Source: Candidatus Scalindua sp. (lineage in GTDB: Bacteria; Planctomycetota; Brocadiia; Brocadiales; Scalinduaceae). From it: DNA of 32,000 nt. Both the position numbers and the translations under genes were made by a program. This document shows, one piece after another, positions 2,207-30,980 of the stretch (position 1 is the first letter of the stretch; each line of letters opens with the position of its first letter). The notes beneath the pieces are model-generated. The model made no database searches, was not told the origin of the DNA, and saw nothing but the letters and a program-made list of their open reading frames with translations. The stretch is from positions 2,430,001 to 2,462,000 of the forward strand of contig JALDRA010000001.1 of the NCBI GenBank assembly GCA_031316235.1, read 5' to 3'.

Positions 2207-2414
2207 TTTAAGCACTAAGTAAAATCTATGCAAACTTTTCCGGATGTTTAACAACACCTATCCTCTTTATGCTGATCCAAGCACTGACTTTCAATTAGCA
2301 ACATGTTATGATTTGTAGATAATAACTCGAACACGCAAAAAGCATAACCTGAAACTTCTGACAGTTTTTGCTTTTGGTTATTGCATGTTCGCTTTTCATG
2401 ACAAAAAATGTTAT

Positions 2415-2440
2415 ATGAAGTAGTGGTCAATAGTGTTTCA
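2415..2440. repeat. 26-bp lox/dif-like site, copy 1 (left arm degenerate)
   Basis: Sequence atgaagtagtggtcaatagtgtttca. The right 19 nt are identical to copy 2 (4077-4102). It lies exactly where ParE-like homology ends. Confidence 0.6.
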
Positions 2441-2790
2441 GAAATATTATCTTTCTCGATTCTATAATAAATTGCATATGGAAATCGCTTGAGTAGACAT
2501 CTCCTAAAGTCTTTGTATACTGTTTGATATATTAATGGGGTTCGTTGTATTGTGCAGGAAAGAGCATAAAAAACACGAAGAAATTCTTCACCAAGTCCGA
2601 TAGCTGTTTCCTCATACCAACTATAACCTTATATAATATACTCATTTCATAATGGTTTTCGGATAAAATCCGAGAAAAAACGGAGCGAGTATAACTGCAA
2701 CCAAGATTTGGTTTTCAGAAAAACCGAAAACCAAATCGGTTTTAGTATATCTTCTTCTGATTCAGGAAGAAACGATAAAGAATAAATCAT
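2441..2790 (-). pseudogene. ParE/RelE-family toxin remnant, split by a MITE-like element and 3'-truncated
   Basis: On the minus strand, ATG at 2790 gives MIYSLSFLPESEE. The 115-bp element 2636-2750 follows, then GYSWYEETAIGLGEEFLRVFYALSCTIQRTPLIYQTVYKDFRRCLLKRFPYAIYYRIEKDNI. An in-frame TAA sits at the junction. The ATG overlaps the TGA of the upstream antitoxin remnant (ATGA). Confidence 0.7.
2636..2750 (+). mobile_element. MITE-like element, copy A (short class, 115 bp)
   Basis: Ends are atatactca...ttagtatat (inverted). Internal hairpins are tcggat-aaa-atccga and ggttttc...gaaaacc. It aligns along its full length with copies at 15522-15639, 28951-29094, 29641-29755 and 30838-30980. Confidence 0.8.
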
Positions 2791-2996
2791 TTCCTTTTTT
2801 GGATACGTGCTTGTAATTCCTTAAGAGACAATAGTTCACCAGGAGAATAATTTTTTTTCAATCGATATTCTAGCTCTTTCTTATGACTTTCCGGCATAGG
2901 AATATCAGATTCAATAGATGAGATACTATCCCAGAGATCTTCTAAAAAAAGTATCTTTTCTGGGACCTTAGCACTTACCTTCGCCGACCCGAAAAA
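2787..2996 (-). pseudogene. addiction-module antitoxin remnant (no start codon)
   Basis: The open frame FFGSAKVSAKVPEKILFLEDLWDSISSIESDIPMPESHKKELEYRLKKNYSPGELLSLKELQARIQKRK* has a LEDLWDSI core. From memory this resembles the 'putative addiction module component' antitoxin family. Its only Met is internal. Its TGA overlaps the ParE-like ATG. Confidence 0.5.
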
Positions 2997-3232
2997 TTAT
3001 AAAAAGGAATAACTTTCATATGTGTTCTTGTTCGGCCAGGTTTTTAAATGTTTTTCTTTAGCACATTGAAGCTGTGGTAAAACAGTCTATAAGGTGACGC
3101 CTTCCCGGATCAATCGGTTCGAACTGGCAGTCAAAAAAGCAAGAAATTGTCGGCTTGGACACTAAGTTTTTTCTAAGACAAGCTTAGATAAAAAGCCTCT
3201 TTCAGCGGGTTGTCATTCATCAATAATAATTC

Positions 3233-3258
3233 GAAACTGAATGGACAATTGTGTTTCC
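3233..3258. repeat. 26-bp lox/dif-like site, copy 1b
   Basis: Sequence gaaactgaatggacaattgtgtttcc matches copy 4 at 21 of 26 positions. It lies ~40 nt downstream of the vapC stop. Confidence 0.6.
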
Positions 3259-3299
3259 TTCATTTTGCAGGTATACCCTACTTGTCAGGAAAGCGATGG

Positions 3300-3725
3300 T
3301 TATTTATTGGATTCCCAAGGATTGATAATCTTAATACCGCAACCTTCAAAATCCTTGGTATTTCTTGTAGCTATAGATGCTCTCTGTGATTTGACAATAG
3401 CTGCAATCATTAAGTCCACCACATCGGTATTAAATCCATCTTTCTCAAGTTTTGCAGCCATAACACCATAAATATAGGCGGCTTCCTCATCGAAAGAGAA
3501 AATACGACCACCGAAAGCATCTGTGATAAAGGCAGAAAAATTAATTTCCAGTGTGTTGCGCCGCTTACCTTTTGGTAAACGTGCCAAGCCCCTTTGAATC
3601 TCTGCAATAGCTATTGTTGTTAATGCCAAGTTGGTTGGTTTTTGCGCAGCTATCCACTCTTTTACATTTTCATGTGGTTCTTCGCGCATGAGTTCCGAAA
3701 TGATGTTAGTATCAAGAATAATCAT
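3300..3725 (-). CDS. vapC: PIN-domain toxin, VapC/FitB-like
   Basis: MIILDTNIISE... with PIN acidic residues (LDTN, SE, DLMIAA, TRNTKDF). The ATG at 3725 overlaps the vapB TGA (TGATG). The track start at 3728 is a TTG one codon upstream. Confidence 0.88.
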   Translation of the reverse strand: MIILDTNIISELMREEPHENVKEWIAAQKPTNLALTTIAIAEIQRGLARLPKGKRRNTLEINFSAFITDAFGGRIFSFDEEAAYIYGVMAAKLEKDGFNTDVVDLMIAAIVKSQRASIATRNTKDFEGCGIKIINPWESNK

Positions 3726-3970
3726 CAATTAAATTCAATATGTTGACGCTTAGAGCTTCGCTCTGGTAATTCAATATCAACACCATGTTTGGAACCAAAA
3801 TATTTTTCAGCCATATCCAGAATGTTAACAGGTTTCAAGCCGTTTGCGCAGGATGCTTTCCTTAGAATTTGACGGACATAGGACTCAAGAGAAACCCCAG
3901 ATTGAGCCGCATGGATACGAAGAGCCTCTTTTGTTTTGTCCGACAAATTACGTATTGTAATACTAGCCAT
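3725..3970 (-). CDS. vapB: ribbon-helix-helix antitoxin, VapB/FitA-like
   Basis: MASITIRNLSDKTKEALRIHAAQSGVSLESYVRQILRKA is a typical RHH N-terminus. The gene is translationally coupled to vapC. Confidence 0.82.
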   Translation of the reverse strand: MASITIRNLSDKTKEALRIHAAQSGVSLESYVRQILRKASCANGLKPVNILDMAEKYFGSKHGVDIELPERSSKRQHIEFN

Positions 3971-4076
3971 TAATATCTCCTTATGAAGTCATTGTAATCA
4001 TTGCAATCATTGATGTCAATATATTATTTCGTATGATAATAGGTCGTAAAGCCTGTTATGTAACATCGGAGAATTG

Positions 4077-4102
4077 TAAACAGAATGGTCAATAGTGTTT
4101 CA
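4077..4102. repeat. 26-bp lox/dif-like site, copy 2
   Basis: Sequence taaacagaatggtcaatagtgtttca matches copy 4 at 24 of 26 positions. It lies 108 nt upstream of the vapB start on the minus strand. Confidence 0.7.
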
Positions 4103-4595
4103 GATCATCGCCAGTTCAGAGCCCACCCATGTCCTTGGTATTGATGATCCACAAAATGCTGTCACCTTCCCCATAGAAAGACGACAACCTCCTACTTTCA
4201 TTCCTCTTAAACCCTTCTTTCTTCGTCTGTGTAAAAAATACATTAAGACATGTCATATACCAATACACACGAAAACCGCATAAAGGAGTTTTAAGAGGAT
4301 GGAGAGAAATAACAGATTTTACACACCTGATTAAACACCATGTTCATCAGCCAAAAATTTGTAAGATTGTTCATGACACACCAGCAAAGAAAACGGGGGT
4401 TTGTTTAACAATGTACCGCTTACGCTTTTTCACTAATATTTGAGGAGCTTAAAGAGGTAAGGTAGCCGGTAAAATAATCTACGTAATAGTCCAATAAAGA
4501 TTTTTGAGTTTTTTTACGATTTACCTCCAAATGGAAAACAGCATTATAAAAGCCTTAAAAACCAAGACCTCATAAGGGCAAAAAAAATAATTGGC

Positions 4596-5720
4596 CTAAC
4601 TTATAACCCTGCTCTCTTTAAACCCCCAATCATCAAAGAAAGCACCATCGTCTTTAAGACGATCCATAGACCTATAAGAAAAAAGGCTTGCACATGAAGC
4701 ATAACGATATATTAAGTCTTGTTTTTCTTTTTGATGAAGCCCTTCCCACCAACTTGGAGTCATAAAAACATTGTCGCAAAATTCAAAGAAAAACCTAATC
4801 AAAGAATTGGTTATGGAACAATGGGGGATATTCGATAAGCTCTCAATAAATTTACTACACATTCCCATACTGTCATTGTCTTCTACCCAACTAAAAATAA
4901 CAACACCACCACCACTATCTGTTGAGATCGAGGAGAAAGTAATTAATTCATTGGTCTTGTCTAGATTAAAAATATTTTGTAAAGCATTTCCATGAAAGTC
5001 GCATTCAGGGAATATACCAGCACTACATAAAACAGATGGCGTCTTTTGGAAATAAATTATGTAAGCTTTTATTTGGCTATAATCTTTTGCCATTAATATC
5101 TTGTCGAACTTTTCCTTGTAATATTTTGCATCACGTATTCCAGCTATCACAGCCTCACTATAGTTAAGATGCCTAGCCTGTATATCGAACTGATCTTCAA
5201 CACTTCTCCCCTTATCAGACTCTCTTAAAAAATCTAATGTATCAGCTTGACAAAACTTAAGAAACCCTTCTCTGGCTTGTGCTCTATATGCAAGAAGAAA
5301 ACATTGCTCTTTGTCACCAATAAAAGGTTTGTCCTCTAAAGGTTTAAATAATTCATTATCGTGATATTCACAAAATCCGTTAAAAACTGATGCCTTATTT
5401 ATGCCAAGCAACTCAGGGGGAAGAAGTCCATCATGTTGAGATCGGTTTTTAAAACTTTCTACTTTAAACGCATATATATGGCCATTTTGAGCAATTCTTT
5501 TTAAACTACTAATTGATACCGTGTGAGCCTTTACAATGCCTCCTTTGCATTGGCCTTTGTGACAATCAGCTGCATAACAATATTTTTTGCTAAACGATTT
5601 CTTGATAGATTTGATAAATTCCCACGGTTTATTAGGCTCATCCTTGTCACGATCTAAATGACATTTTTTATATTTCCTTTGTGATCCGCACCAACAAGGA
5701 CTATTTCTGCCGAGCTTCAT
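4596..5720 (-). CDS. SEC-C-motif protein of unknown function
   Basis: The N-terminal NSPCWCGSQRKYKKCH is a SEC-C zinc-binding motif. The rest is unrecognised but has Cys/His clusters (CHKGQCKGGIVKAHTV ... NGFCEYHDNELF). Confidence 0.6.
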   Translation of the reverse strand: MKLGRNSPCWCGSQRKYKKCHLDRDKDEPNKPWEFIKSIKKSFSKKYCYAADCHKGQCKGGIVKAHTVSISSLKRIAQNGHIYAFKVESFKNRSQHDGLLPPELLGINKASVFNGFCEYHDNELFKPLEDKPFIGDKEQCFLLAYRAQAREGFLKFCQADTLDFLRESDKGRSVEDQFDIQARHLNYSEAVIAGIRDAKYYKEKFDKILMAKDYSQIKAYIIYFQKTPSVLCSAGIFPECDFHGNALQNIFNLDKTNELITFSSISTDSGGGVVIFSWVEDNDSMGMCSKFIESLSNIPHCSITNSLIRFFFEFCDNVFMTPSWWEGLHQKEKQDLIYRYASCASLFSYRSMDRLKDDGAFFDDWGFKESRVIS

Positions 5721-5770
5721 TTATTTTTTGATAAACATCTAATAGCTTAATAGAAATATGAATTTACTGA

Positions 5771-6355
5771 CTATGACCACATCCGGGAAGCAATGCCGCG
5801 CTGTTCTTCTCCTAATGCGTTGGCATATATTGCAGTCATTTCAAGGCTTGAATGCCACAACCATTTTGAAAGCATGTTAAGAGGTACGCCTTTAGAGATT
5901 GCGTGTACTCCAAAGCCATGCCTTAGACCCTTCGGGCTTTTATGTGGGCCGTCAGGTATTCCGGCTTCATCCATAACGGATTTAATATAACGAAATCCAG
6001 TCATAAGCGACCAGGGCCATAAAGGTTTATTAAGGATAGTCCTTTTTTTAGTTTTTAAAGCCTCTGTAAGGCCATGAACCATATCAATGGTATCAAGTGC
6101 CTCTTCGGGAATTGGAACGACCCGGTGAATGACCTTACCCCGTTTTTTGAGTGATTTAAATATAAGCGCTTTTTCTGAGAGGTCTACAAGCTTGGGTGTT
6201 AATGAAAGGGCTTCGCTGATTCTGCATCCAGTATAATGAAGGGCAAAGCAGAATGTACGGATTTCTCTCGGGGCCTTTTTGGCCGCTTCGAGAAAGTCTT
6301 CTCTTTCTTTTGAGGTAAGATAAAGCCTCTGTCCTTTTGAATCGATTAACTTCAT
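5771..6355 (-). CDS. small (about 194 aa) tyrosine recombinase, catalytic domain only, FimB/FimE-sized
   Basis: Catalytic signature: Arg in TGCRISEAL, then KGLRHGFG (xLRH box), then WHSSLEMTAIY (His/Trp plus the Tyr nucleophile). The likely start is ATG at 6355 (MKLIDSKGQRLYLTSKERE...). The track ORF extends 22 codons further upstream. Confidence 0.85.
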   Translation of the reverse strand: MKLIDSKGQRLYLTSKEREDFLEAAKKAPREIRTFCFALHYTGCRISEALSLTPKLVDLSEKALIFKSLKKRGKVIHRVVPIPEEALDTIDMVHGLTEALKTKKRTILNKPLWPWSLMTGFRYIKSVMDEAGIPDGPHKSPKGLRHGFGVHAISKGVPLNMLSKWLWHSSLEMTAIYANALGEEQRGIASRMWS

Positions 6356-6366
6356 AATTGTTCGTT

Positions 6367-6396
6367 TTGTTACAATACTTATAGGAAGTGTAACAA
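6367..6396. promoter_or_regulatory. inverted repeat TTGTTACA-N14-TGTAACAA just upstream of the recombinase start
   Basis: Perfect 8-bp arms at 6367-6374 and 6389-6396, 12 nt from the ATG at 6355. Confidence 0.4.
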
Positions 6397-6451
6397 TAAC
6401 AACTAAAGAAATGCAATTCAAGGACTAAACTAATACGAAAAGAGGCAAATT

Positions 6452-6480
6452 ATGTTACAGAATACCCTATTTTGTAACAT
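6452..6480. promoter_or_regulatory. inverted repeat ATGTTACA-N13-TGTAACAT
   Basis: Perfect 8-bp arms at 6452-6459 and 6473-6480. The same TGTAACAT half-site recurs 11 nt left of site copy 2 (4059-4066). Confidence 0.4.
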
Positions 6481-6490
6481 TGGGGAATCT

Positions 6491-6516
6491 GAGACAGATT
6501 AGTGTATTCTGTTTCA
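6491..6516. repeat. 26-bp lox/dif-like site, copy 3 (most symmetric variant)
   Basis: Sequence gagacagatt-agtgt-attctgtttc(a). The 10-nt arms are complementary at 8 of 10 positions around a 5-nt centre. Confidence 0.65.
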
Positions 6517-6554
6517 AACCGGTCTGTACGAGTTGCAAATTATTGGTAAAAAAT

Positions 6555-6617
6555 ATTTAACGCCTCGCATCAGAGGCCTGGCCGTAGGCCAGATCCGTCT
6601 GCATGCGCTTGTTAGCT
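6555..6617 (-). other. attC-like folded recombination site (A)
   Basis: Minus strand: AGCTAAC-aag-cgcat(g)cag-[ctggcc tac ggccag]-ctgatgcg-aggc-GTTAAAT. It has an RYYYAAC-like box overlapping the TAG stop of 6616..7665 and a perfect GTTRRRY core. It also has an unpaired spacer, a stem with one bulged G, and a terminal hairpin. Confidence 0.55.
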
Positions 6618-7665
6618 AGCCATCTTTTTGATCATTATTATCGTTTCGATGAAGTGGGTATGGGTACGGAATTAGCTGCCCAAACATTCCCATAACCATT
6701 AACCATAGCTTGCTAGTGCGTGATTGAATTCTTGATAACTCCTGAGGGTTTTCAGCTTTTACTTCACCGTGATTTATCGAGTTTCTGATGTCGTATAGCC
6801 GATTAACAGTGTCTTCACGATTGAAGCACTCATCAATGAAGTGATCAGCAGATTCTCCGAAACAAACTCCAATTGCATGGATTGCTTTTGTCTTTAAACC
6901 AGGATTAACCACAGTGGTATAGGCTTCTTGGATAAACGCCGGAGATACTTTTCCTCCATGTGATACAAATATTGCTTCAATCTTATCCTGCTTTTCGACC
7001 TTTGTTTGTTTTTCGTATGGTACAGCTAGGCATATCGCATCGACTAAACACTCAAAAGCGTTCCAGTATGCGGCATAAATTTTCAGTAAGTCAGGACTAG
7101 ACAAATCCATCATTGGTTGTTTTGGATCCCTTATCCAAAACAGGGCAGCTTCAACTTTTCCTGAAATTTTTGGGTGAATCGATACGGCACCTTCAACAGC
7201 GCGACCTAGGTCGTCATGGTTCAATTTGGTTTTTACGCCACCACCTCCACCATCATGGGTAATATGCGACCACCAACCACAATGGCAATTAGTCCGTGTC
7301 ACAAGTGTAAATGCACCCAAAAATAAATTAATTCTTCTCGATGCATCTAATATCGATGCAATCGATTTGTCGTTAATTGTCGCTTTTGCTTTATGAACAG
7401 TTCTTTCATTTTTAATGACTGTATTTTTCAAGTTCTCAGGAAAAACTGTTATTCCTAAGCTTTCAATTTCGAATAATTTGTCTAATGGCTCAAAGTCACC
7501 AAAGATTAAAAATACAAAATCGTCACCCCAGTCTTTGGGCCAGTGTTCAATACGTTGCTCAAGGTGAGCAAGGCCAGAGGCATGAACCCATTCCAGACCT
7601 TCGGATTGCAGTTCCTTTACCCGATCAAAATATTTATGAATCTCTGGGGGTGTTTTAGTGGCCAT
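6616..7665 (-). CDS. hypothetical protein with C-terminal HEPN-like Rx4H motif
   Basis: 349-aa ORF. The C-terminal LYDIRNSINHGEV contains R-N-x-x-x-H, the HEPN RNase signature form. The rest is unrecognised. The start lies 26 nt after attC-like site B. Confidence 0.55.
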   Translation of the reverse strand: MATKTPPEIHKYFDRVKELQSEGLEWVHASGLAHLEQRIEHWPKDWGDDFVFLIFGDFEPLDKLFEIESLGITVFPENLKNTVIKNERTVHKAKATINDKSIASILDASRRINLFLGAFTLVTRTNCHCGWWSHITHDGGGGGVKTKLNHDDLGRAVEGAVSIHPKISGKVEAALFWIRDPKQPMMDLSSPDLLKIYAAYWNAFECLVDAICLAVPYEKQTKVEKQDKIEAIFVSHGGKVSPAFIQEAYTTVVNPGLKTKAIHAIGVCFGESADHFIDECFNREDTVNRLYDIRNSINHGEVKAENPQELSRIQSRTSKLWLMVMGMFGQLIPYPYPLHRNDNNDQKDG

Positions 7666-7690
7666 TGACTGAATTTAAACGTTGAAAGAT

Positions 7691-7778
7691 GGCTAACGCC
7701 CGGGCTCAGGGGCGGTAAAAAAGCGTAGCGAGGAACGAGCGCAGCTTTTTTTACGTCCCTTGGAGCCCATTGTTATGT
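7691..7778 (-). other. attC-like folded recombination site (B)
   Basis: Minus strand: ACATAAC-aat-gggctc(c)aaggg-[acgtaaaaaaagc...gcttttttaccg]-cccctgagccc-gggc-GTTAGCC. It begins 4 nt after the TGA of 7782..8480 and has the same TAAC-AAK...RGGC-GTTA frame as site A. Confidence 0.55.
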
Positions 7779-7781
7779 GTT

Positions 7782-8480
7782 TCAATTGTCTTCACTCACA
7801 AAGCCAAACCTACGATGGAGCCAGCTAATCAGCAAAGGGTACATTAGCAGAAATGCCAAAACACCAAACCCAGACTTAACATAAAACTCCACTTGCGGAG
7901 ATAGCCCAGACACTTCGGTTACTTCAAATGGCAATATAATCGGGTTTTCCAGCTCATAAGAATCGCGGTTAATAGACGGCTTGTACCATTTGGAAAATGG
8001 CAGCTCAATAAATGACAATGATAATTGATTGGAGCCTGCACTCTTTGGTCTGTAACTCCAACTCCAGCGCGCTTCCTCATCTAGTATTTGTTTTGCTGTA
8101 AAAGATTTTTCTTTTGAAGGTGACACTGATATTTCAGGGCCAGAAAGTTCTACTTTTAGCGGTTTAGTGTTCTCCGCGTTCAAGCCGCTGAAAATAGGGG
8201 GAATAAGTCGAAAACTCAGTGTGCCAGTTTCAGTAATGCTAATTCTTTTGTCATACACTATCGTCAATTCACCGACATCCTTGGTCATGGACAAAAGGGC
8301 CGGGATATATGGTGTATGAGATACTACTTCTGGTTTACCTGCCTTCACTGAATTCTTGTCTTCTTCGTATGCAAGAAACGTAACGATGTTAATGCCGATA
8401 CCAATCAGAGCAGCAACAACTGCTAAGCTGACCTTTAAGCTTGAAGATAAGGATATGATGTATTTGTTGAATTCGTTCAT
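7782..8480 (-). CDS. membrane protein, N- and C-terminal TM helices, unknown function
   Basis: 232-aa ORF with hydrophobic segments LAVVAALIGIGINIVTFLAY and GFGVLAFLLMYPLLISWL. No family recognised. Confidence 0.55.
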   Translation of the reverse strand: MNEFNKYIISLSSSLKVSLAVVAALIGIGINIVTFLAYEEDKNSVKAGKPEVVSHTPYIPALLSMTKDVGELTIVYDKRISITETGTLSFRLIPPIFSGLNAENTKPLKVELSGPEISVSPSKEKSFTAKQILDEEARWSWSYRPKSAGSNQLSLSFIELPFSKWYKPSINRDSYELENPIILPFEVTEVSGLSPQVEFYVKSGFGVLAFLLMYPLLISWLHRRFGFVSEDN

Positions 8481-8709
8481 ATCTCTACTTTACACATAAC
8501 AGTTAAATGGACTGCGACTATGTTATCAGAAATATACGGCGGCTGTATATTTCGAATATCATGACAAATTTCTGTTCTAAAGAAGAAACAATCTGCCCTT
8601 ATCGGACGGTCACAATCAGGGTATTATATAAAATGTGAAATAAAATGACATAACAAAATACATTGATGTGATTAAGAAAATAACAGTTATGGCTACGTGA
8701 TTTTTATGT

Positions 8710-8735
8710 GAAACAGAATGGTTAATAGTGTTTCA
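8710..8735. repeat. 26-bp lox/dif-like site, copy 4
   Basis: Sequence gaaacagaatggttaatagtgtttca. It is followed by the same ~45-nt conserved linker as copy 3. Confidence 0.7.
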
Positions 8736-8771: not shown

Positions 8772-8838
8772 ATTTAACGTTTGAGTAAAGCTAGCCTGTT
8801 TGGCAAATAAAGCTATTAATACAAGAAACGTGTTAATC
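8772..8838 (-). other. weaker attC-like site (D)
   Basis: Minus strand: GATTAAC...GTTAAAT, with the same R' core as site A. TTAAC/GTTAA and gttt/aaac pair, but the inner stem is poor. Confidence 0.3.
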
Positions 8839-9068: not shown

Positions 9069-10787
9069 CTAATGAACAGTTGGCAATCGTAAACTACTCA
9101 AAAACGTTCTTAACGCTAATCTGTCATTATCAGAAAGACTTTCGAATTTTGCAATAGAGCCGTTAGCCTCGCTGCCAGTTCCTTTATGCATGAGAATGGC
9201 TTCAGTCAGAGTCAGCGCTCGACCATCGTGCATCCATGGTGCCGTATCAGCCACTCCCCACAGTGGACGGGTTAAGAACTCATTTTCAGGGATCTCTTGG
9301 CCACCATCTGTTTTCTGGGTAATAGGCTCTTCCAGAACATTTCCCATCTTATGTCGCTTTAAATCGCTGTAGAGCGGCACATCGATTTTCCCGTTTTTAT
9401 GAGGAAGACGGGGCAGAGTTTCCGGTGGACCATCCTCACGGTTAAGATTGCGGGAGTAGCCTTTTAAGTTTAATAGAATCTCTTTCGCAACCATCTCCGC
9501 AGGAGTCTTCCCTTCAACAGATTTCAACAATTTCATTTTCTTTTTTATTGAATATTTCTCCAATGATGGTGACACACTATAAGGCACCGTAATCCCAAAT
9601 CTCTCCGCTTTCTTCCCTAACTTCCTTAATTACTTTTTGACCACGGAGTGAGGAAATCCTTTCTCTACCTTGTCTTTCATCGCCTTATCTGTTCTCGGAT
9701 CTCGAATTGTCGCAAAGGGACTGTCGATTGTAAGGCTTGGGGTATGGCAGGAGGCGCAATCAGCGCTCATAAAAATATCTCTGCCTTGCTGAACCCTCTG
9801 TGCATCAAGTCCCCTGGAAGACTCAGTTGGGGGTCTTACAAAAGCAAGGAACGTGGCAACAGCACTGATGTCACCTTCAAGTATCTCATTCGTTGCGTCA
9901 TCGGAATTGCCATCCAAATCATTGAGTTCTGGATTTGCCTCAAGAAATTCCTTAGGTTGCACGCTGAAATGAAAATTCATGGCGTCCCTGATGAAGTTTC
10001 GTAGATTGCTGGCTATTCCTCTCCATTGAAAAGGTCGAACGAGGAGGTCATGACTGACACCGACAACATCGCTAAAGTCGACTGTTCAGCCCTGATCAGT
10101 GACAATTTTTCCAAAGGACACTCCTTTGGTGACAAGCTCCACCATATTCCCTGGATTTGCCTGTGCCTCAGCTAATTTCTCCTGCAAATCCCAAGTCATT
10201 TCTTCTGCTAGAGTTTGTGTGTACCCAGCTCCAAATGCGTGCGGAGGGTTCCGGATAACACCCCTGGTCGGATTGGTGGAATCACACTCTTCGCTCTCAG
10301 GCTCGCACCCGAAATTCTCCAATCCAAAGGCACTAGAAGCAAATCCTGCACCCCCAGCGGTAAATCCTAGTTGTTTGGCAAAACGGATTTTGGGTTGATC
10401 GTTAGAATAATTTTTCTGAGGCGCAAACCCAACAGCTAAATGACACTCAAGGCACGATTGTGAATCGAGCCCATTAAAATGCAGGAACGGATAGTTCTCC
10501 CGGTCATCCATTGTATACTTACTGCGTCGTGGTCCGGTGGGACCTTCACCATAATGATCTTCAGTTGTAAAACGGTTTGAGAAAATATGTTTACCAGCGT
10601 AAAACAAATCTTCAAACGGCACTTTATTTTGATTGATGTCATCTTGACTAAAACGGACCTCATCGATGAGATTACGTTGGTCTGCTAAAGGCTGGTCCGT
10701 CCTTGAAGCTATACTACTGCAACCTACTGCGACGATGATGATGATTGATACAAAAATCCACAAGCGAATCTTTGTTCCATTTCTCAT
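9069..10787 (-). pseudogene. di-haem cytochrome c peroxidase-like lipoprotein (DUF1111-like) with two in-frame stops
   Basis: Three track ORFs share one frame (ends 10841, 9980 and 9587 are all 2 mod 3). They are separated by TGA (10086-10088) and TAA (9630-9632). Motifs present: CLECH, CASCH, DLKRHKMG, TAPWMHDGRALTLTEAILMH. The signal/lipobox is MRNGTKIRLWIFVSIIIIVAVGC, from the ATG at 10787. Confidence 0.65.
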
Positions 10788-11222
10788 AAAGCTTCTTCCT
10801 TTAGTGTTTAAAAGAAAGAATATATAATTGCCTAAAAGCAAACTGAGAAATTGATAAGCAAAAACAATATCATTTTTCTTTTCAGGAGAGCGGATTTGTA
10901 AGATTTTGCATAATAATATGTTTGAAAATAGAGATTAAGACCTAAATTGAGAGATTCAATTTTTTCTATTATGGTAACCGCTGACCTTCTACCTGACTAT
11001 GTCATTCAGGCGGGTAGCCCGAGTTTATCATCAAACAATGGGTCTACGTGAATTTTTCGTAAGTTACGCAAACTAAAGGTGTGACTACCCGTCCCTGCCA
11101 GAAAGATTGTTGCCCGCCCGTCCCCTTCAGGCCATTGGGACGAGGTGGCAATTTTGACAGAGCTGTCCCTGTCTGCTTGCGTACGCACAGGCAGGGAGGA
11201 TGCTCTAACTCGATTGCTTGAC

Positions 11223-11365
11223 GGAAACACAAGTTGAAATAAAACTGCCTAGATACAAGGCGCATAATTATTTGGTAACCGGAACGTACTCAAGTACGTG
11301 AGGATTCCAAAATGATTGCAGCAACGCAGTAGGTGGGTAGTTTTAGTTCAACTTGAACTCGCTAC
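11223..11365 (-). repeat. ~140-bp long-hairpin element, copy 2, starting at the stop codon of 11362..11691
   Basis: Its reverse complement aligns with 2065-2206. It holds the same position relative to the upstream gene's TAG. Confidence 0.8.
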
Positions 11366-11691
11366 TCTACTTCTTTCATCATTACCCCGCAATGGCAGTT
11401 ATCCTGTTCATCTGCCTGCGTACCGCAGTCACATCCCCCGCTGCAGGCACACTCATATTGAAGGTCATCACTCGGACCGCTATCAGAAGGAATAGTAATC
11501 AGGCCGCAGAGACACCTGCCCCCGGGTTTTAATGTTTCGTATTCACAGAGACAGCCGCCAGGGCAATTGCAAATGTAGATCGTGGTTTTTTCGGATGCCT
11601 TACCCATAGAGGTTAAGCAACAAAGAGTGGTAAGCACGATAGCGCTTACTATCACCAGGGTAAATATTCCTCTTTTCAAACTGGTAAACAT
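11362..11691 (-). CDS. small membrane-anchored/secreted Cys-rich protein with a tandem CxCxGGCxC...CxCG motif
   Basis: N-terminal hydrophobic segment IFTLVIVSAIVLTTLCCL. Two repeats: YICNCPGGCLCEYETLKPGGRCLCG and YECACSGGCDCGTQADEQDNCHCG. Confidence 0.6.
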   Translation of the reverse strand: MFTSLKRGIFTLVIVSAIVLTTLCCLTSMGKASEKTTIYICNCPGGCLCEYETLKPGGRCLCGLITIPSDSGPSDDLQYECACSGGCDCGTQADEQDNCHCGVMMKEVE

Positions 11692-14001: not shown

Positions 14002-14238
14002 GATAGAGTGCTGTTGTGATTATAATAAAAGATTAACGTCCAGATGGTAACTGATTGATCTGCAGACAGGCAAAATGGATATTTTACAATGTGGCTGAAC
14101 GGAAACTACCCATCTGCCGCGTAGCTGCAGGGATACCCTGATCCTCCCGGTAGATGGCTATGCTCCGTTTGTGAAATCGGCGTATCTGGTGGCCGGCTAT
14201 TATGTTTCAAACCACTGGATTTCCGTTCAATCACTGTT

Positions 14239-15521: not shown

Positions 15522-15639
15522 TCTCTACTGAAACCGATCTGGTTGTAGATTTTTCTGAAAACCAGAGCCTGGCTGCCGGTACATCCGCTCAATTTTATCT
15601 CGGATTTTATCCGAAAACCATTGTAAGATGAGCATATAC
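15522..15639 (-). mobile_element. MITE-like element, copy B (short class, ends degenerate)
   Basis: Its reverse complement aligns with copy A (…caatggttttcggataaaatccgagataaaattgagcg…ggttttcagaaaaatc…gatcggtttcagta). Confidence 0.7.
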
Positions 15640-16540: not shown

Positions 16541-17509
16541 GTGGTCTCTATGAAGAAGGAAGACAACACCTATCTCCTGGCTGCTGATGTAGGGGGTACG
16601 AATACCAGGGTTGCCGTGGTGACCCGTGAAGGCGGGATACATACTCTCTTGAAAAAACGTACCTGTAGTAAGGAAGGCAGGGATGAGATGATCCCGTTCC
16701 TTATCTCCCTTTTTAAAGAGACCATGAGAGAATCTAAACTCTCTCGTGAGAAGATAAGCGGCCTGGGGATTGGTTTTCCAGGTCCTTTAGATGCGCAAAC
16801 GGGTACCATATTCAATCCTCCTAACCTGCCGGGCTGGGATACTGTTCCGTTAAGACGTATACTCGAAGATGAATTCAGGATGCCTGTTTCAATTGAGAAT
16901 GATGCAAATGCAGCTGCACTTGGTGAATGGTGGAAGGGTGTCGGGGTCGGGACAAAGAGTTTCGTATGTATTACCCTGGGTACGGGTGTTGGAGGGGGCA
17001 TAATCCTGGATGGGAAACTCTGGTATGGGGCATCATCGATGGCGGGGGAAATTGGTCACACTACCATTATACGAAACGGGATACCCTGTACCTGTGGAAA
17101 TAACGGCTGTCTTGAGGCCTATGCTTCGGCCAGGGGCATTCTCGACAGAACACGGAGGATATTGGCGGAAACACAAAAAGGGGGACAGGCAGAGATGGAG
17201 CTCACGTTTGAAGATATCAGCAATATGGCGGCGCAGGGAGACGACAGGGTATTACCTGTCATTGAGGAAACAGGTGCTATCCTCGGTATTGCAGTGGCGA
17301 ACCTCGCTAATCTCCTCAATCCGGAAATGATTGCACTGTTTGGAGGTGTAACCAACCTGGGAGATAAACTTTTCATACCGATGAAGGAAGAGGTCAGAAA
17401 AAGGGCTTTTGAAAGGGCGAGAGAACCGCTCAAGATTGAAGTTGCAAAACTGGGTGATAACAGCGGGCTGCTTGGAGCGGCAAAAAGTATCCTGGAAAAA
17501 AGTCAGTAA
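16541..17509 (+). CDS. ROK-family sugar kinase (glucokinase-like)
   Basis: LAADVGGTNTRVAVV ATP-binding motif and the ROK zinc signature CTCGNNGCLEAYAS. GTG at 16541 abuts the upstream stop. An alternative ATG is at 16550. Confidence 0.88.
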   Translation: MVSMKKEDNTYLLAADVGGTNTRVAVVTREGGIHTLLKKRTCSKEGRDEMIPFLISLFKETMRESKLSREKISGLGIGFPGPLDAQTGTIFNPPNLPGWDTVPLRRILEDEFRMPVSIENDANAAALGEWWKGVGVGTKSFVCITLGTGVGGGIILDGKLWYGASSMAGEIGHTTIIRNGIPCTCGNNGCLEAYASARGILDRTRRILAETQKGGQAEMELTFEDISNMAAQGDDRVLPVIEETGAILGIAVANLANLLNPEMIALFGGVTNLGDKLFIPMKEEVRKRAFERAREPLKIEVAKLGDNSGLLGAAKSILEKSQ

Positions 17510-28950: not shown

Positions 28951-29094
28951 ATATACTAAAAGCGATCTGGTTTTAGATTTTTCTAAAAACCAAAACCTGT
29001 TTGCTGATATCCCCGGACAAAAAGCGCCGAGGACTTTCCCCGCTCCGTTTTTTTCGCGGATTTTATCCGAAAACCATTATAAGATGAGTATTAT
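28951..29094 (-). mobile_element. MITE-like element, copy C (long class, 144 bp)
   Basis: Its reverse complement aligns with copy E, including the extra ~28-nt internal block (…aaagtcctcggcgctttttgtccggggata…). Confidence 0.8.
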
Positions 29095-29629: not shown

Positions 29630-29640
29630 GCAGATAGCAG

Positions 29641-29755
29641 GTATACTCATCTCATACTGGATTTCGGATAAGATCCGAGATAAAATTGAGCGAGTATACC
29701 TTCACCAAGCTTTGGTTTTTTAAAAAGCCAAAAACCAAATCGGTTTCAGTATATA
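29641..29755 (+). mobile_element. MITE-like element, copy D (short class, 115 bp)
   Basis: gtatactcatctcatactggatttcggataagatccgag…ccaaaaaccaaatcggtttcagtatata. It ends 15 nt before the cytochrome gene ATG. Confidence 0.8.
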
Positions 29756-30622: not shown

Positions 30623-30838
30623 ATGAATACGTGCAGTTTGTCTGATTTTATGGAAATTCTTAAGCCCTGGCTTTCACGTGATTATCTTCAGAAAGCCTCC
30701 CTGGATAAAGAGGGTCGTTTAATAGTGCTCTTCACGGACGGTATACAGAATGTATACCACATTAAAGATTGTACGGCTGATCAATTAAAGGAGATTCTTG
30801 ATGATTTTAAAAAGAGAGGTATCGAGGTTGAAGAGTAA
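30623..30838 (+). CDS. small hypothetical protein (71 aa)
   Basis: Good SD (aaaggagag) 6 nt before the ATG. No family recognised. Its stop abuts MITE copy E. Confidence 0.5.
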   Translation: MNTCSLSDFMEILKPWLSRDYLQKASLDKEGRLIVLFTDGIQNVYHIKDCTADQLKEILDDFKKRGIEVEE

Positions 30839-30980
30839 TATACTCATCTCATACTGGATTTCGTATAAAATCCGAGAAAAAAACGGAGCGAGTAAAGTCC
30901 TTGGCGCTTTTTGTCCGGGGATACCTTCACCAGGATTTGGTTTCCGGTAAAACCGAAAACCAAATCGGTTTTAGTATATA
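30838..30980 (+). mobile_element. MITE-like element, copy E (long class, 143 bp)
   Basis: atatactcatctcatactggatttcgtataaaatccgag…aaaaccgaaaaccaaatcggttttagtatata. It shares the internal block with copy C. Confidence 0.8.

Follow-up and report, generated by a model that had tools for sequence, protein, structure and literature searches.

The 32,000-nucleotide (nt) stretch of a Candidatus Scalindua chromosome analyzed here (contig JALDRA010000001.1, positions 2,430,001 to 2,462,000; the window) carries an accessory island with five directly repeated copies of a short palindrome and the gene for a 194-amino-acid (aa) tyrosine recombinase that consists of a catalytic domain only. We consider it probable that the five repeats are core recombination sites of the family to which this small recombinase belongs, and that the island is a Cre/lox-like module array, interleaved with integron-type cassettes and mostly fossil today. 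This reading was drawn from sequence comparisons.

The original prediction, made from the sequence alone, had described the repeats as five copies in one orientation, and all five are present on the plus strand, with the unit growing to 27 bp (27-mer) after the addition of one 5' base. The 27-mer consists of an 11-bp inverted arm, a 5-bp center, and a second 11-bp inverted arm, with the consensus TGAAACAGAAT-GGYYA-ATAGTGTTTCA, and the start-to-start spacings of successive copies 1 to 5 are 818, 844, 2414, and 2219 bp. The chance expectation was estimated from 60 dinucleotide-preserving shuffles of the window, using the consensus without its two central bases. At up to 6 mismatches, the window contained 4 matches versus 0.0 in the shuffles, and at up to 7 mismatches, 7 versus 0.2; the consensus given in the original prediction yielded 2 matches at up to 3 mismatches, with 0.00 expected. 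The arms of copy 5 match the cross-phylum consensus arms perfectly, whereas copy 4 represents a separate subtype, with both arms of the GAAT kind and the center AGTGT. Only copies 1 and 3 agree in their centers (Table 1).

Two inverted arms around a short center are compatible with the core-site geometry that had been proposed; a tyrosine recombinase core site has two inverted enzyme-binding arms around a 6- to 8-bp overlap. The 27-mer can alternatively be parsed as 10+7+10 bp with T-GGYYA-A as the overlap. The outer arms are not always complementary, as had been claimed. Copies 3 and 4 each have one outer-arm mismatch, and copy 1 is a half-site, since its center and right arm are intact but its left arm is unrelated. 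A second half-site was found in an alphaproteobacterial chromosome (locus L004, position 5214). The two are broken at either edge of the center, and both keep one arm and T-GGYYA-A, as would be expected if strands were exchanged at the edges of a 5- to 7-bp overlap.

The window recombinase matched Pfam PF00589 with 67.8 bits (cutoff, 27.1), which places it in the tyrosine recombinase superfamily, and R45, K71, K142xxR145, H168, and Y177 are conserved across 17 homologues. An AlphaFold2 model (mean predicted local distance difference test score of 84.7) matched the catalytic domains of Xer, IntI, and lambda Int, and the closest solved structures were Xer proteins. However, the protein scored below the family cutoffs for XerD (51.6 versus 329.6 bits), XerC (42.3 versus 335), XerA (58 versus 220), and XerS (16 versus 267); it has no N-terminal domain and was not assigned to XerC, XerD, XerS, XerH, or XerA. 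The integron integrase profiles TIGR02249 (30.4 versus 265 bits) and PRK15417 (22.6 versus 435) matched only the C-terminal 70 aa, and the scores for PRK09871 (37.7 versus 222) and PRK09870 (31.9 versus 221) leave the protein outside the FimB/FimE-type invertases. The earlier description of a catalytic-domain-only enzyme is thus borne out: PF00589 was the only domain, and by NCBIfam cutoffs the enzyme is neither Xer nor IntI.

The family comprises at least 4,934 protein clusters, all of about 190 to 206 aa (E ≤ 1e-10), whose members are annotated merely as "site-specific integrase." In viral contigs the 27-mer pattern was absent, and only 3 full-length family members were found. Neither the family nor the site is described in the literature and the curated protein and RNA libraries that were searched, a statement that extends to those collections only; catalytic-domain-only enzymes did not appear in the passages covered of a paper classifying tyrosine recombinases, and Rfam had no family for the site at E values up to 1. 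Judged within the collections covered, the family and its site are uncharacterized so far.

The link between the repeats and the recombinase family was observed directly, from the protein side as well as from the DNA side. The protein-side survey covered 80 metagenome loci plus plasmid and contig loci, 77 of which had enough upstream DNA to be scored for TGnnACA(GAAT|CTAT)-N5-(ATTC|ATAG)TGTnnCA no more than 350 nt upstream of the ATG. A site was present at 56 of these 77 homologue loci, compared to 4 of 62 control stretches. This upstream site (site I) mostly lies 100 to 230 nt from the recombinase ATG, and many loci possess a second site (site II), a 28-bp palindrome with the same outer bases, 20 to 75 nt from the ATG. 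The variable outer bases (AA, TT, AT, CC, GAA, and others) are consistent across the two arms of a site and across sites I and II of a locus. The outer-base type follows the protein tree among close relatives, with a nearest neighbor of like type in 21 of 36 cases (P < 0.0005 by permutation). A strict rule of one enzyme and one site type was rejected, because the types switch even between proteins that are 78 to 88% identical and because the site at L115 8301 differs from copy 4 only by a TT that replaces AA in one arm.

From the DNA side, a degenerate pattern was scanned against 596 Gb with one genome per species. It was found at 17 loci; by our own arithmetic, chance alone would give about 4 matches to its 19 specified bases. 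About 13 of the 17 have the palindrome TGAAACAGAATGGCCAATAGTGTTTCA in full or nearly so, within unrelated and in many cases G+C-rich flanks. The hosts include Scalindua, Alphaproteobacteria, Acidobacteriota (Bryobacteraceae), Nitrospinia, and others. Two Vibrio matches (L014 and L018) were discarded as chance matches, since they lie within a conserved gene and lack TGAAAC arms. Scalindua genomes contain multiple copies (L011 and L017 are on one contig), and in L012 and L008 a homologue of the 194-aa recombinase directly adjoins the site. These results link the repeats to the family of the recombinase encoded among them.

Some relatives have inverted site pairs with reverse-complementary centers. 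The pairs flank the recombinase gene in L084 (−118/+577), L089 (−118/+1612), and L101/L102 (−117/+775; all positions from the ATG), and they enclose about 130 bp of upstream DNA in L012, L093/L094, and L097. This arrangement suggests inversion switches, so that the recombinase family may also run such switches, as the similarly sized FimB and FimE do.

Site I and site II of the window recombinase, a collapsed 27-mer beside copy 3, three attC-like sites, and a recurring double site had been overlooked in the original prediction (Table 1). Site II is probably an operator or an accessory site. TGTTACA-type sites lie upstream of the 89%-identical plasmid homologue in the same position relative to the gene, with a difference of one base in site I; the TGTTACA-type site at L019 9854, which occupies that position, differs from the window site I at 1 of 27 bases. 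Copy 4 and site I form a double site, 10 nt apart. This arrangement of a 27-mer, 10 nt, and a TGTTACA-type 27-mer is found again at copy 3, with a collapsed partner, as well as in L007, L114, and L115 (twice in the last). The L115 8301 site, with its single altered arm, suggests that the TGAAACA and TGTTACA types may exchange arms or interconvert.

TGAAACA-type sites were also seen next to a HigB/MqsA-like toxin-antitoxin (TA) pair in two Scalinduaceae genomes (L016 1654-1681 and 1749-1775; L017 441-467). The antitoxins are 92% identical, one pair lying beside malQ/glgP and the other beside uvrC, and in L016 sites I and II are followed by the TA pair instead of the recombinase. A HigBA-like module shared by L016 and L017 counts against a boundary role of the sites, as its comparison between the two loci showed no clean site-to-site boundaries.

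Breaks in homology at the sites, and a different module order in a relative, were likewise observed directly. The stretch from copy 3 to copy 2 (4102-3232), with the double site, vapBC, and the downstream site, is 88% identical to L114 5618-6500 over 870 positions, with a drop immediately outside both 27-mers to about 40%, a value at the background level of forced alignments. The source of L114 is a close relative, since L114 contains the same MITE (miniature inverted-repeat transposable element) and a fragment of the same recombinase gene, but its neighboring genes and module order differ: a thioredoxin-like gene is followed by VapBC, then by the MITE and the recombinase fragment, and then by RelB-YafQ. 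The expectations that the sites bound modules and that module order and content vary between relatives are both supported by the recurrence of VapBC with other neighbors. Compared to the plasmid relatives (L019 and L111 to L113), homology is confined to the 27-mer of site I and to the segment from 6432, about 77 nt upstream of the ATG, to the recombinase stop codon; the approximately 20 nt between site I and 6432 do not align.

In L110 the homology breakpoint lies in the right arm of site II. The arrangement in L110 is otherwise homologous to that of the window but lacks the SEC-C gene. A segment homologous to window 4517-4369 (L110 5841-5989) directly follows the recombinase gene there, from which it follows that the SEC-C gene was either inserted in the window or deleted in L110. 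Direct-site arrays that bound accessory genes were also found in L004, with dehydrogenases, a hydrolase, and a GNAT protein, in L003, with a methyltransferase-like gene, and in L115.

Homologues of the recombinase were present on 42 plasmids in PLSDB, from Acetobacteraceae, roseobacters, Shewanella, and Desulfosarcina, and contigs that encode the window enzyme's relatives with 89% and 77% identity also carry genes for Rep, a relaxase, a coupling protein, and ParA. A single site I, upstream of the recombinase gene and with par (parA and parDE), rep, or TA genes as neighbors, was found on each of the complete plasmids L107, L117, L118, and L119. They thus show the Cre/loxP-like combination of one gene and one cognate site amid maintenance genes. 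On plasmids, a second site of 28 bp is located at the start of the gene. No site was found at the threshold used on the more divergent plasmids L108 and L109. The layout is what we would expect of a single-protein system for multimer resolution or cointegration, similar to Cre/loxP.

The mechanism that we infer starts with recombinase bound to each arm and strands exchanged in the short center. A circle with one site, either a plasmid or an excised one, could then integrate into another site on the chromosome; further rounds of integration would produce a row of accessory modules with directly repeated sites between them, and recombination between direct sites would free circles again. The window island would be such an array in the Candidatus Scalindua chromosome. 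The differing centers, the half-site at copy 1, the MITE in the first module, and the truncated toxin suggest that it is now mostly fossil.

Several observations weigh against this reading. Neither recombination products nor circle junctions nor empty sites were seen. Exchange by tyrosine recombinases needs matching centers, and since the centers differ, most exchanges between the present copies should be blocked. The resident enzyme's own sites are of the TGTTACA type while the five copies are of the TGAAACA type, and no TGAAACA-type enzyme is encoded in the window; the enzyme acting on TGAAACA sites could be the resident TGTTACA-type recombinase or a paralogue elsewhere. In the protein-side survey, 21 of the 77 homologue loci had no site at the threshold used, and the survey is not an independent test, since the site score was devised after the sites had been seen. 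VapBC homologues occur in L115 and L116 without 27-mer sites. Finally, copies 4 and 5 lie just inside the starts of integron-type cassettes, so that IntI could have placed both.

This last point bears on an alternative that we regard as unlikely, namely, that the island is an integron cassette array without an integrase (a cluster of attC sites lacking integron integrases [CALIN]) and that the 27-mers are passengers in the 5' ends of cassettes moved by IntI. Three attC-like sites, called by eye and with a home-made scan rather than with a validated attC model, lie in gene orientation with stop codons at R''; the stop codon of the open reading frame (ORF) at 6616-7665, for example, is inside R'' of the site at 6555-6617. 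Copies 4 and 5 follow an R' box (GTTAAAT) by about 40 nt, behind a shared leader, and the same layout of R', leader, and site occurs in L111 and L016. The interval from copy 5 to copy 4 would thus consist of two integron-type cassettes, and TA systems and unknown proteins are typical cargo of chromosomal integrons. However, no attC-like site lies beside copies 1, 2, or 3, the boundaries of the VapBC unit common to the window and L114 are 27-mers rather than attC sites, and on plasmids the 27-mers adjoin the small recombinase with no attC-like site near the gene. The 27-mers themselves do not resemble attC (R''[RYYYAAC]-L''...L'-R'[GTTRRRY], a hairpin of 55 to 140 nt), being too short and lacking R boxes. 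The window encodes no IntI, and the ORF at 16541-17509, considered as an integron integrase for the attC-like sites, turned out to be a ROK-family kinase.

We prefer to read the island as an array in which two recombination systems are interleaved, since copies 4 and 5 sit about 40 nt inside cassette starts marked by attC-like sites. In lineages with the R'-leader arrangement, the recombinase unit itself looks like a cassette, as judged from its layout. The 40-nt leader was rejected as a family-wide accessory site because it is shared only among Scalindua-related loci. The earlier proposal of a cassette array built by site-specific recombination through these repeats is partly supported: the sites bound the VapBC module, but copies 4 and 5 lie in integron-type cassettes, the resident enzyme's sites are of another type, and the recombination breakpoint proposed at copy 1 depends on a weak ParE assignment.

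It is quite improbable that the 27-mers are operators, bound by a recombinase-like or other dimeric protein and spread by duplication of promoter regions. Such a role would fit site II, which overlaps the region just upstream of the recombinase ATG, the location of most copies upstream of operons in the direction of transcription, and the conserved leader with a TATAAT-like box after copy 5. It would not explain why vapC is followed by copy 2 in the window and by the corresponding site in L114, why half-sites are broken at the center and homology ends exactly at the sites, or why relatives have inverted pairs with reverse-complementary centers. Arms around a short center are, moreover, the geometry of a recombination core site.

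We give still less weight to the view that the sites are dif-like targets of the host XerC/XerD, in the style of Acinetobacter pdif or of integrative mobile elements exploiting Xer (IMEX), and that the small recombinase is irrelevant. The size and palindromic plan are similar, the nearest solved structures to the recombinase model are Xer proteins, and the modules carry TA genes, as pdif modules do in the portions covered of two reports (PMC5790767 and PMC12907356). Against this view, the site travels and covaries with a dedicated small recombinase, several dispersed copies are present per Scalindua genome, and near-identity across phyla is unexpected for dif. As originally noted, the site sequence is unlike dif: the 27-mer has a 5-nt center, compared to the 28-bp 11+6+11 plan with a 6-nt center, and showed no visible likeness to the conserved XerD arm TTATGTTAAAT (compared by eye). 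The window site thus lacks the features of dif, i.e., 28 bp, the conserved XerD arm, and one main copy per replicon, and the GC skew, taken as an indicator of the terminus and dif, shows no clear switch at the island. The remaining view, that the 27-mer is a dispersed fragment of an insertion sequence (IS) or MITE, a finding named at the outset as one that would overturn the prediction, or a chance palindrome, has a negligible probability: the window is rich in MITE-like and repetitive extragenic palindrome (REP)-like repeats, but sequence more than about 10 nt outside the repeats is not common to all five copies, so that the 27-mer is not a piece of a longer IS or MITE, and in addition the shuffles gave no matching signal, Rfam has no family for it, and the site is strongly linked to the recombinase.

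The island, at about 2.1 to 9.0 kb, has a G+C content of 36 to 40%, compared to 45 to 48% in the flanks, and lies between an aconitase gene and a broken di-heme oxidoreductase gene (PF06537). The latter is split into three ORFs (9069-9587, 9630-9980, and 10086-10841) and is probably a pseudogene. Every island gene is on the minus strand, and the contents of the intervals are as first described. In the minus-strand direction, the order is copy 5; the membrane and 349-aa proteins; copy 4 and site I; the recombinase and SEC-C protein; copy 3; VapBC; copy 2; a decayed TA pair; and copy 1. The window VapC has an identical counterpart recorded from a 4.15-Mb Candidatus Scalindua contig.

The toxin of the decayed pair had been called ParE-like, with its homology stopping where copy 1 begins. 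The alignment to ParE2 (8c26; residues 19 to 79 of 105) is compatible with a 3' truncation of the toxin at copy 1, but the ParE assignment itself is weak, with E = 0.74 for that match, no Pfam match at E = 0.01, and weak hints from BLASTP and the PDB. The MITE-like repeat that splits this remnant (about 120 bp, with internal hairpins; families D1 to D3) has further plus-strand copies at 29639-29755 and 30836-30980 and copies on the opposite strand at 15526-15635 and 28954-29091, and it occurs in L114 at 7436-7632. A second dispersed element of about 125 nt with a strong hairpin is located at 2072-2197, 11235-11351 (inverted), and 14094-14231 in the window and at L007 7843-7968 and L116 3663-3763. 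L007 was rejected for comparison as a syntenic locus with an empty site, because its similarity to 2072-2197 comes from this REP-like repeat, which recurs at 11235-11351, and does not reflect synteny. A small cysteine-rich ORF of 109 aa (11362-11691) has a signal-peptide-like N terminus and no family match.

The leader after copy 5 corresponds to L007 6843-6994 and to L115 at about 8365-8480. It is noncoding, follows a site or double site, and precedes a different gene in each of the three loci (for a membrane protein, an FMN reductase, and a HATPase_c_3 protein). The leader could be a portable promoter.

Table 1. Putative recombination sites, genes, and other features of the island (positions within the window)
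Feature	Position	Strand	Sequence or remarks
Copy 1	2414-2440	+	TATGAAGTAGT GGTCA ATAGTGTTTCA; outermost site, on the aconitase side of the island
RelE/ParE-like toxin remnant	2441-2633	-	Translation ends ...FPYAIYYRIEKDNI directly at copy 1; weak similarity
MITE-like repeat, about 120 bp	2634-2751	+	Splits the toxin remnant; also in L114
Small antitoxin-like ORF remnant	2788-2965 (approximate)	-	Translation ...ESHKKELEYRLKKNYSPGELLSLKELQARIQKRK*
Copy 2	3232-3258	+	CGAAACTGAAT GGACA ATTGTGTTTCC; whole site CGAAACTGAATGGACAATTGTGTTTCC; downstream boundary of the VapBC module
vapC	3300-3728	-	PIN domain
vapB	3725-3970	-	FitA-like ribbon-helix-helix protein
Collapsed TGTTACA-type 27-mer	4054-4065	-	TGTTACATAACA; 10 nt from copy 3; homologous site intact in L114
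Copy 3	4076-4102	+	GTAAACAGAAT GGTCA ATAGTGTTTCA; whole site GTAAACAGAATGGTCAATAGTGTTTCA; upstream boundary of the VapBC module
374-aa protein	4596-5720	-	N-terminal SEC-C motif
194-aa tyrosine recombinase	5771-6355	-	Catalytic domain only; R45, K71, K142-x-x-R145, H168, Y177
Site II	6368-6395	-	TGTTACACTTCCTATAAGTATTGTAACA; 28-bp TGTTACA-type palindrome, 13 nt upstream of the recombinase ATG
Site I	6453-6479	+	TGTTACAGAATACCCTATTTTGTAACA; TGTTACA-type 27-mer upstream of the resident recombinase
Copy 4	6490-6516	+	TGAGACAGATT AGTGT ATTCTGTTTCA; whole site TGAGACAGATTAGTGTATTCTGTTTCA
attC-like site 1	6555-6617	-	R'' AGCTAAC ... R' GTTAAAT; imperfect 63-nt hairpin; strong
349-aa protein	6616-7665	-	No known family; cassette-like ORF between two attC-like sites
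attC-like site 2	7691-7778	-	R'' ACATAAC ... R' GTTAGCC; stable hairpin, z-score -3.6; plausible
232-aa predicted membrane protein	7782-8480	-	No known family
Leader, about 150 nt	8548-8694	-	TATAAT-like box; after copy 5; conserved in L007 and L115
Copy 5	8709-8735	+	TGAAACAGAAT GGTTA ATAGTGTTTCA; whole site TGAAACAGAATGGTTAATAGTGTTTCA
attC-like site 3	8772-8838	-	R'' GATTAAC ... R' GTTAAAT; poor fold; weak

A broader proposal is tentative: the recombinases of about 194 aa and their 27-bp double-stranded site, often present as a double site with a promoter-bearing leader, might form a new gene-cassette system parallel to integrons. Such a system would capture, shuffle, and express modules (TA, defense, and metabolic) between plasmids and chromosomes across phyla, and its arm specificities would diversify fast into orthogonal enzyme-site pairs. 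If the reading of the island given here is correct, abundant genes now annotated as "site-specific integrase" gain a defined DNA site, a plausible role in plasmid maintenance, and a role in moving TA and accessory modules between plasmids and chromosomes in distant phyla. Modular gene arrays would then arise in a third way, in addition to integrons and Xer/pdif modules. With its 194-aa enzyme, its 27-bp site, and its naturally occurring arm variants, the system would also be an attractive and possibly useful compact toolset for genome engineering, and it is of interest to specialists in mobile elements.

Among known systems, the pdif modules of Acinetobacter, as described in the parts covered of three reports, have short palindromic tyrosine recombinase sites that bound small modules, including TA modules, in varied contexts (PMC5790767, PMC7399989, and PMC12907356). 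The window 27-mers likewise bound small accessory modules that include TA genes. However, the host XerC/XerD acts on pdif sites, which are dif-like, have a length of 28 bp, and alternate in orientation, whereas the window sites are 27 bp long, unrelated in sequence, and directly repeated, and sites of this type are accompanied by a 194-aa enzyme of their own, whose scores do not come near the Xer cutoffs. Serial integration of IMEX at one site similarly leaves directly repeated sites between elements, but these elements use the host Xer at a single chromosomal dif, in contrast to dispersed sites tied to their own recombinase family. The likeness to integrons lies in one- or two-gene modules in one orientation with sites between them, in the typical TA cargo, and in the attC-like sites of the same island. 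The 27-mers are short double-stranded core sites, in contrast to folded attC sites of 55 to 140 nt; the window enzyme lacks IntI-specific features, and the window modules carry their own promoter regions.

FimB and FimE are of the same size and also consist of a catalytic domain only; the match of the window enzyme covers positions 3 to 174 of the 198-position invertase profile, and in some relatives, inverted sites are paired at a distance of about 130 bp or on both sides of the gene. However, the score of 37.7 bits is far from the cutoff of 222, the window sites are direct and 0.8 to 2.4 kb apart, and the fim system uses 9-bp repeats and host factors. Inverted sites around a short promoter segment were not found in the window, and inverted pairs occurred only in the relatives given above (L012, L093/L094, L097, L084, L089, and L101/L102). 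In Cre/loxP of P1 and TnpI/IRS of Tn4430, as in the plasmids examined here, one recombinase is paired with a simple inverted-arm site located by its gene and present once per plasmid. TnpI/IRS is a single-protein plasmid resolution system (PMC2847244), and the extra nearby putative binding sites of the small-recombinase loci recall the IRS accessory repeats. The differences are that Cre and TnpI have an N-terminal core-binding domain, which is absent from the small-recombinase family, and that loxP is built of 13+8+13 bp. Overall, the comparisons suggest that the system would work like these simple tyrosine recombinase systems and would have an outcome resembling pdif modules and integron arrays, while its enzyme and site match none of the Xer/dif, IntI/attC, and FimB/FimE definitions.

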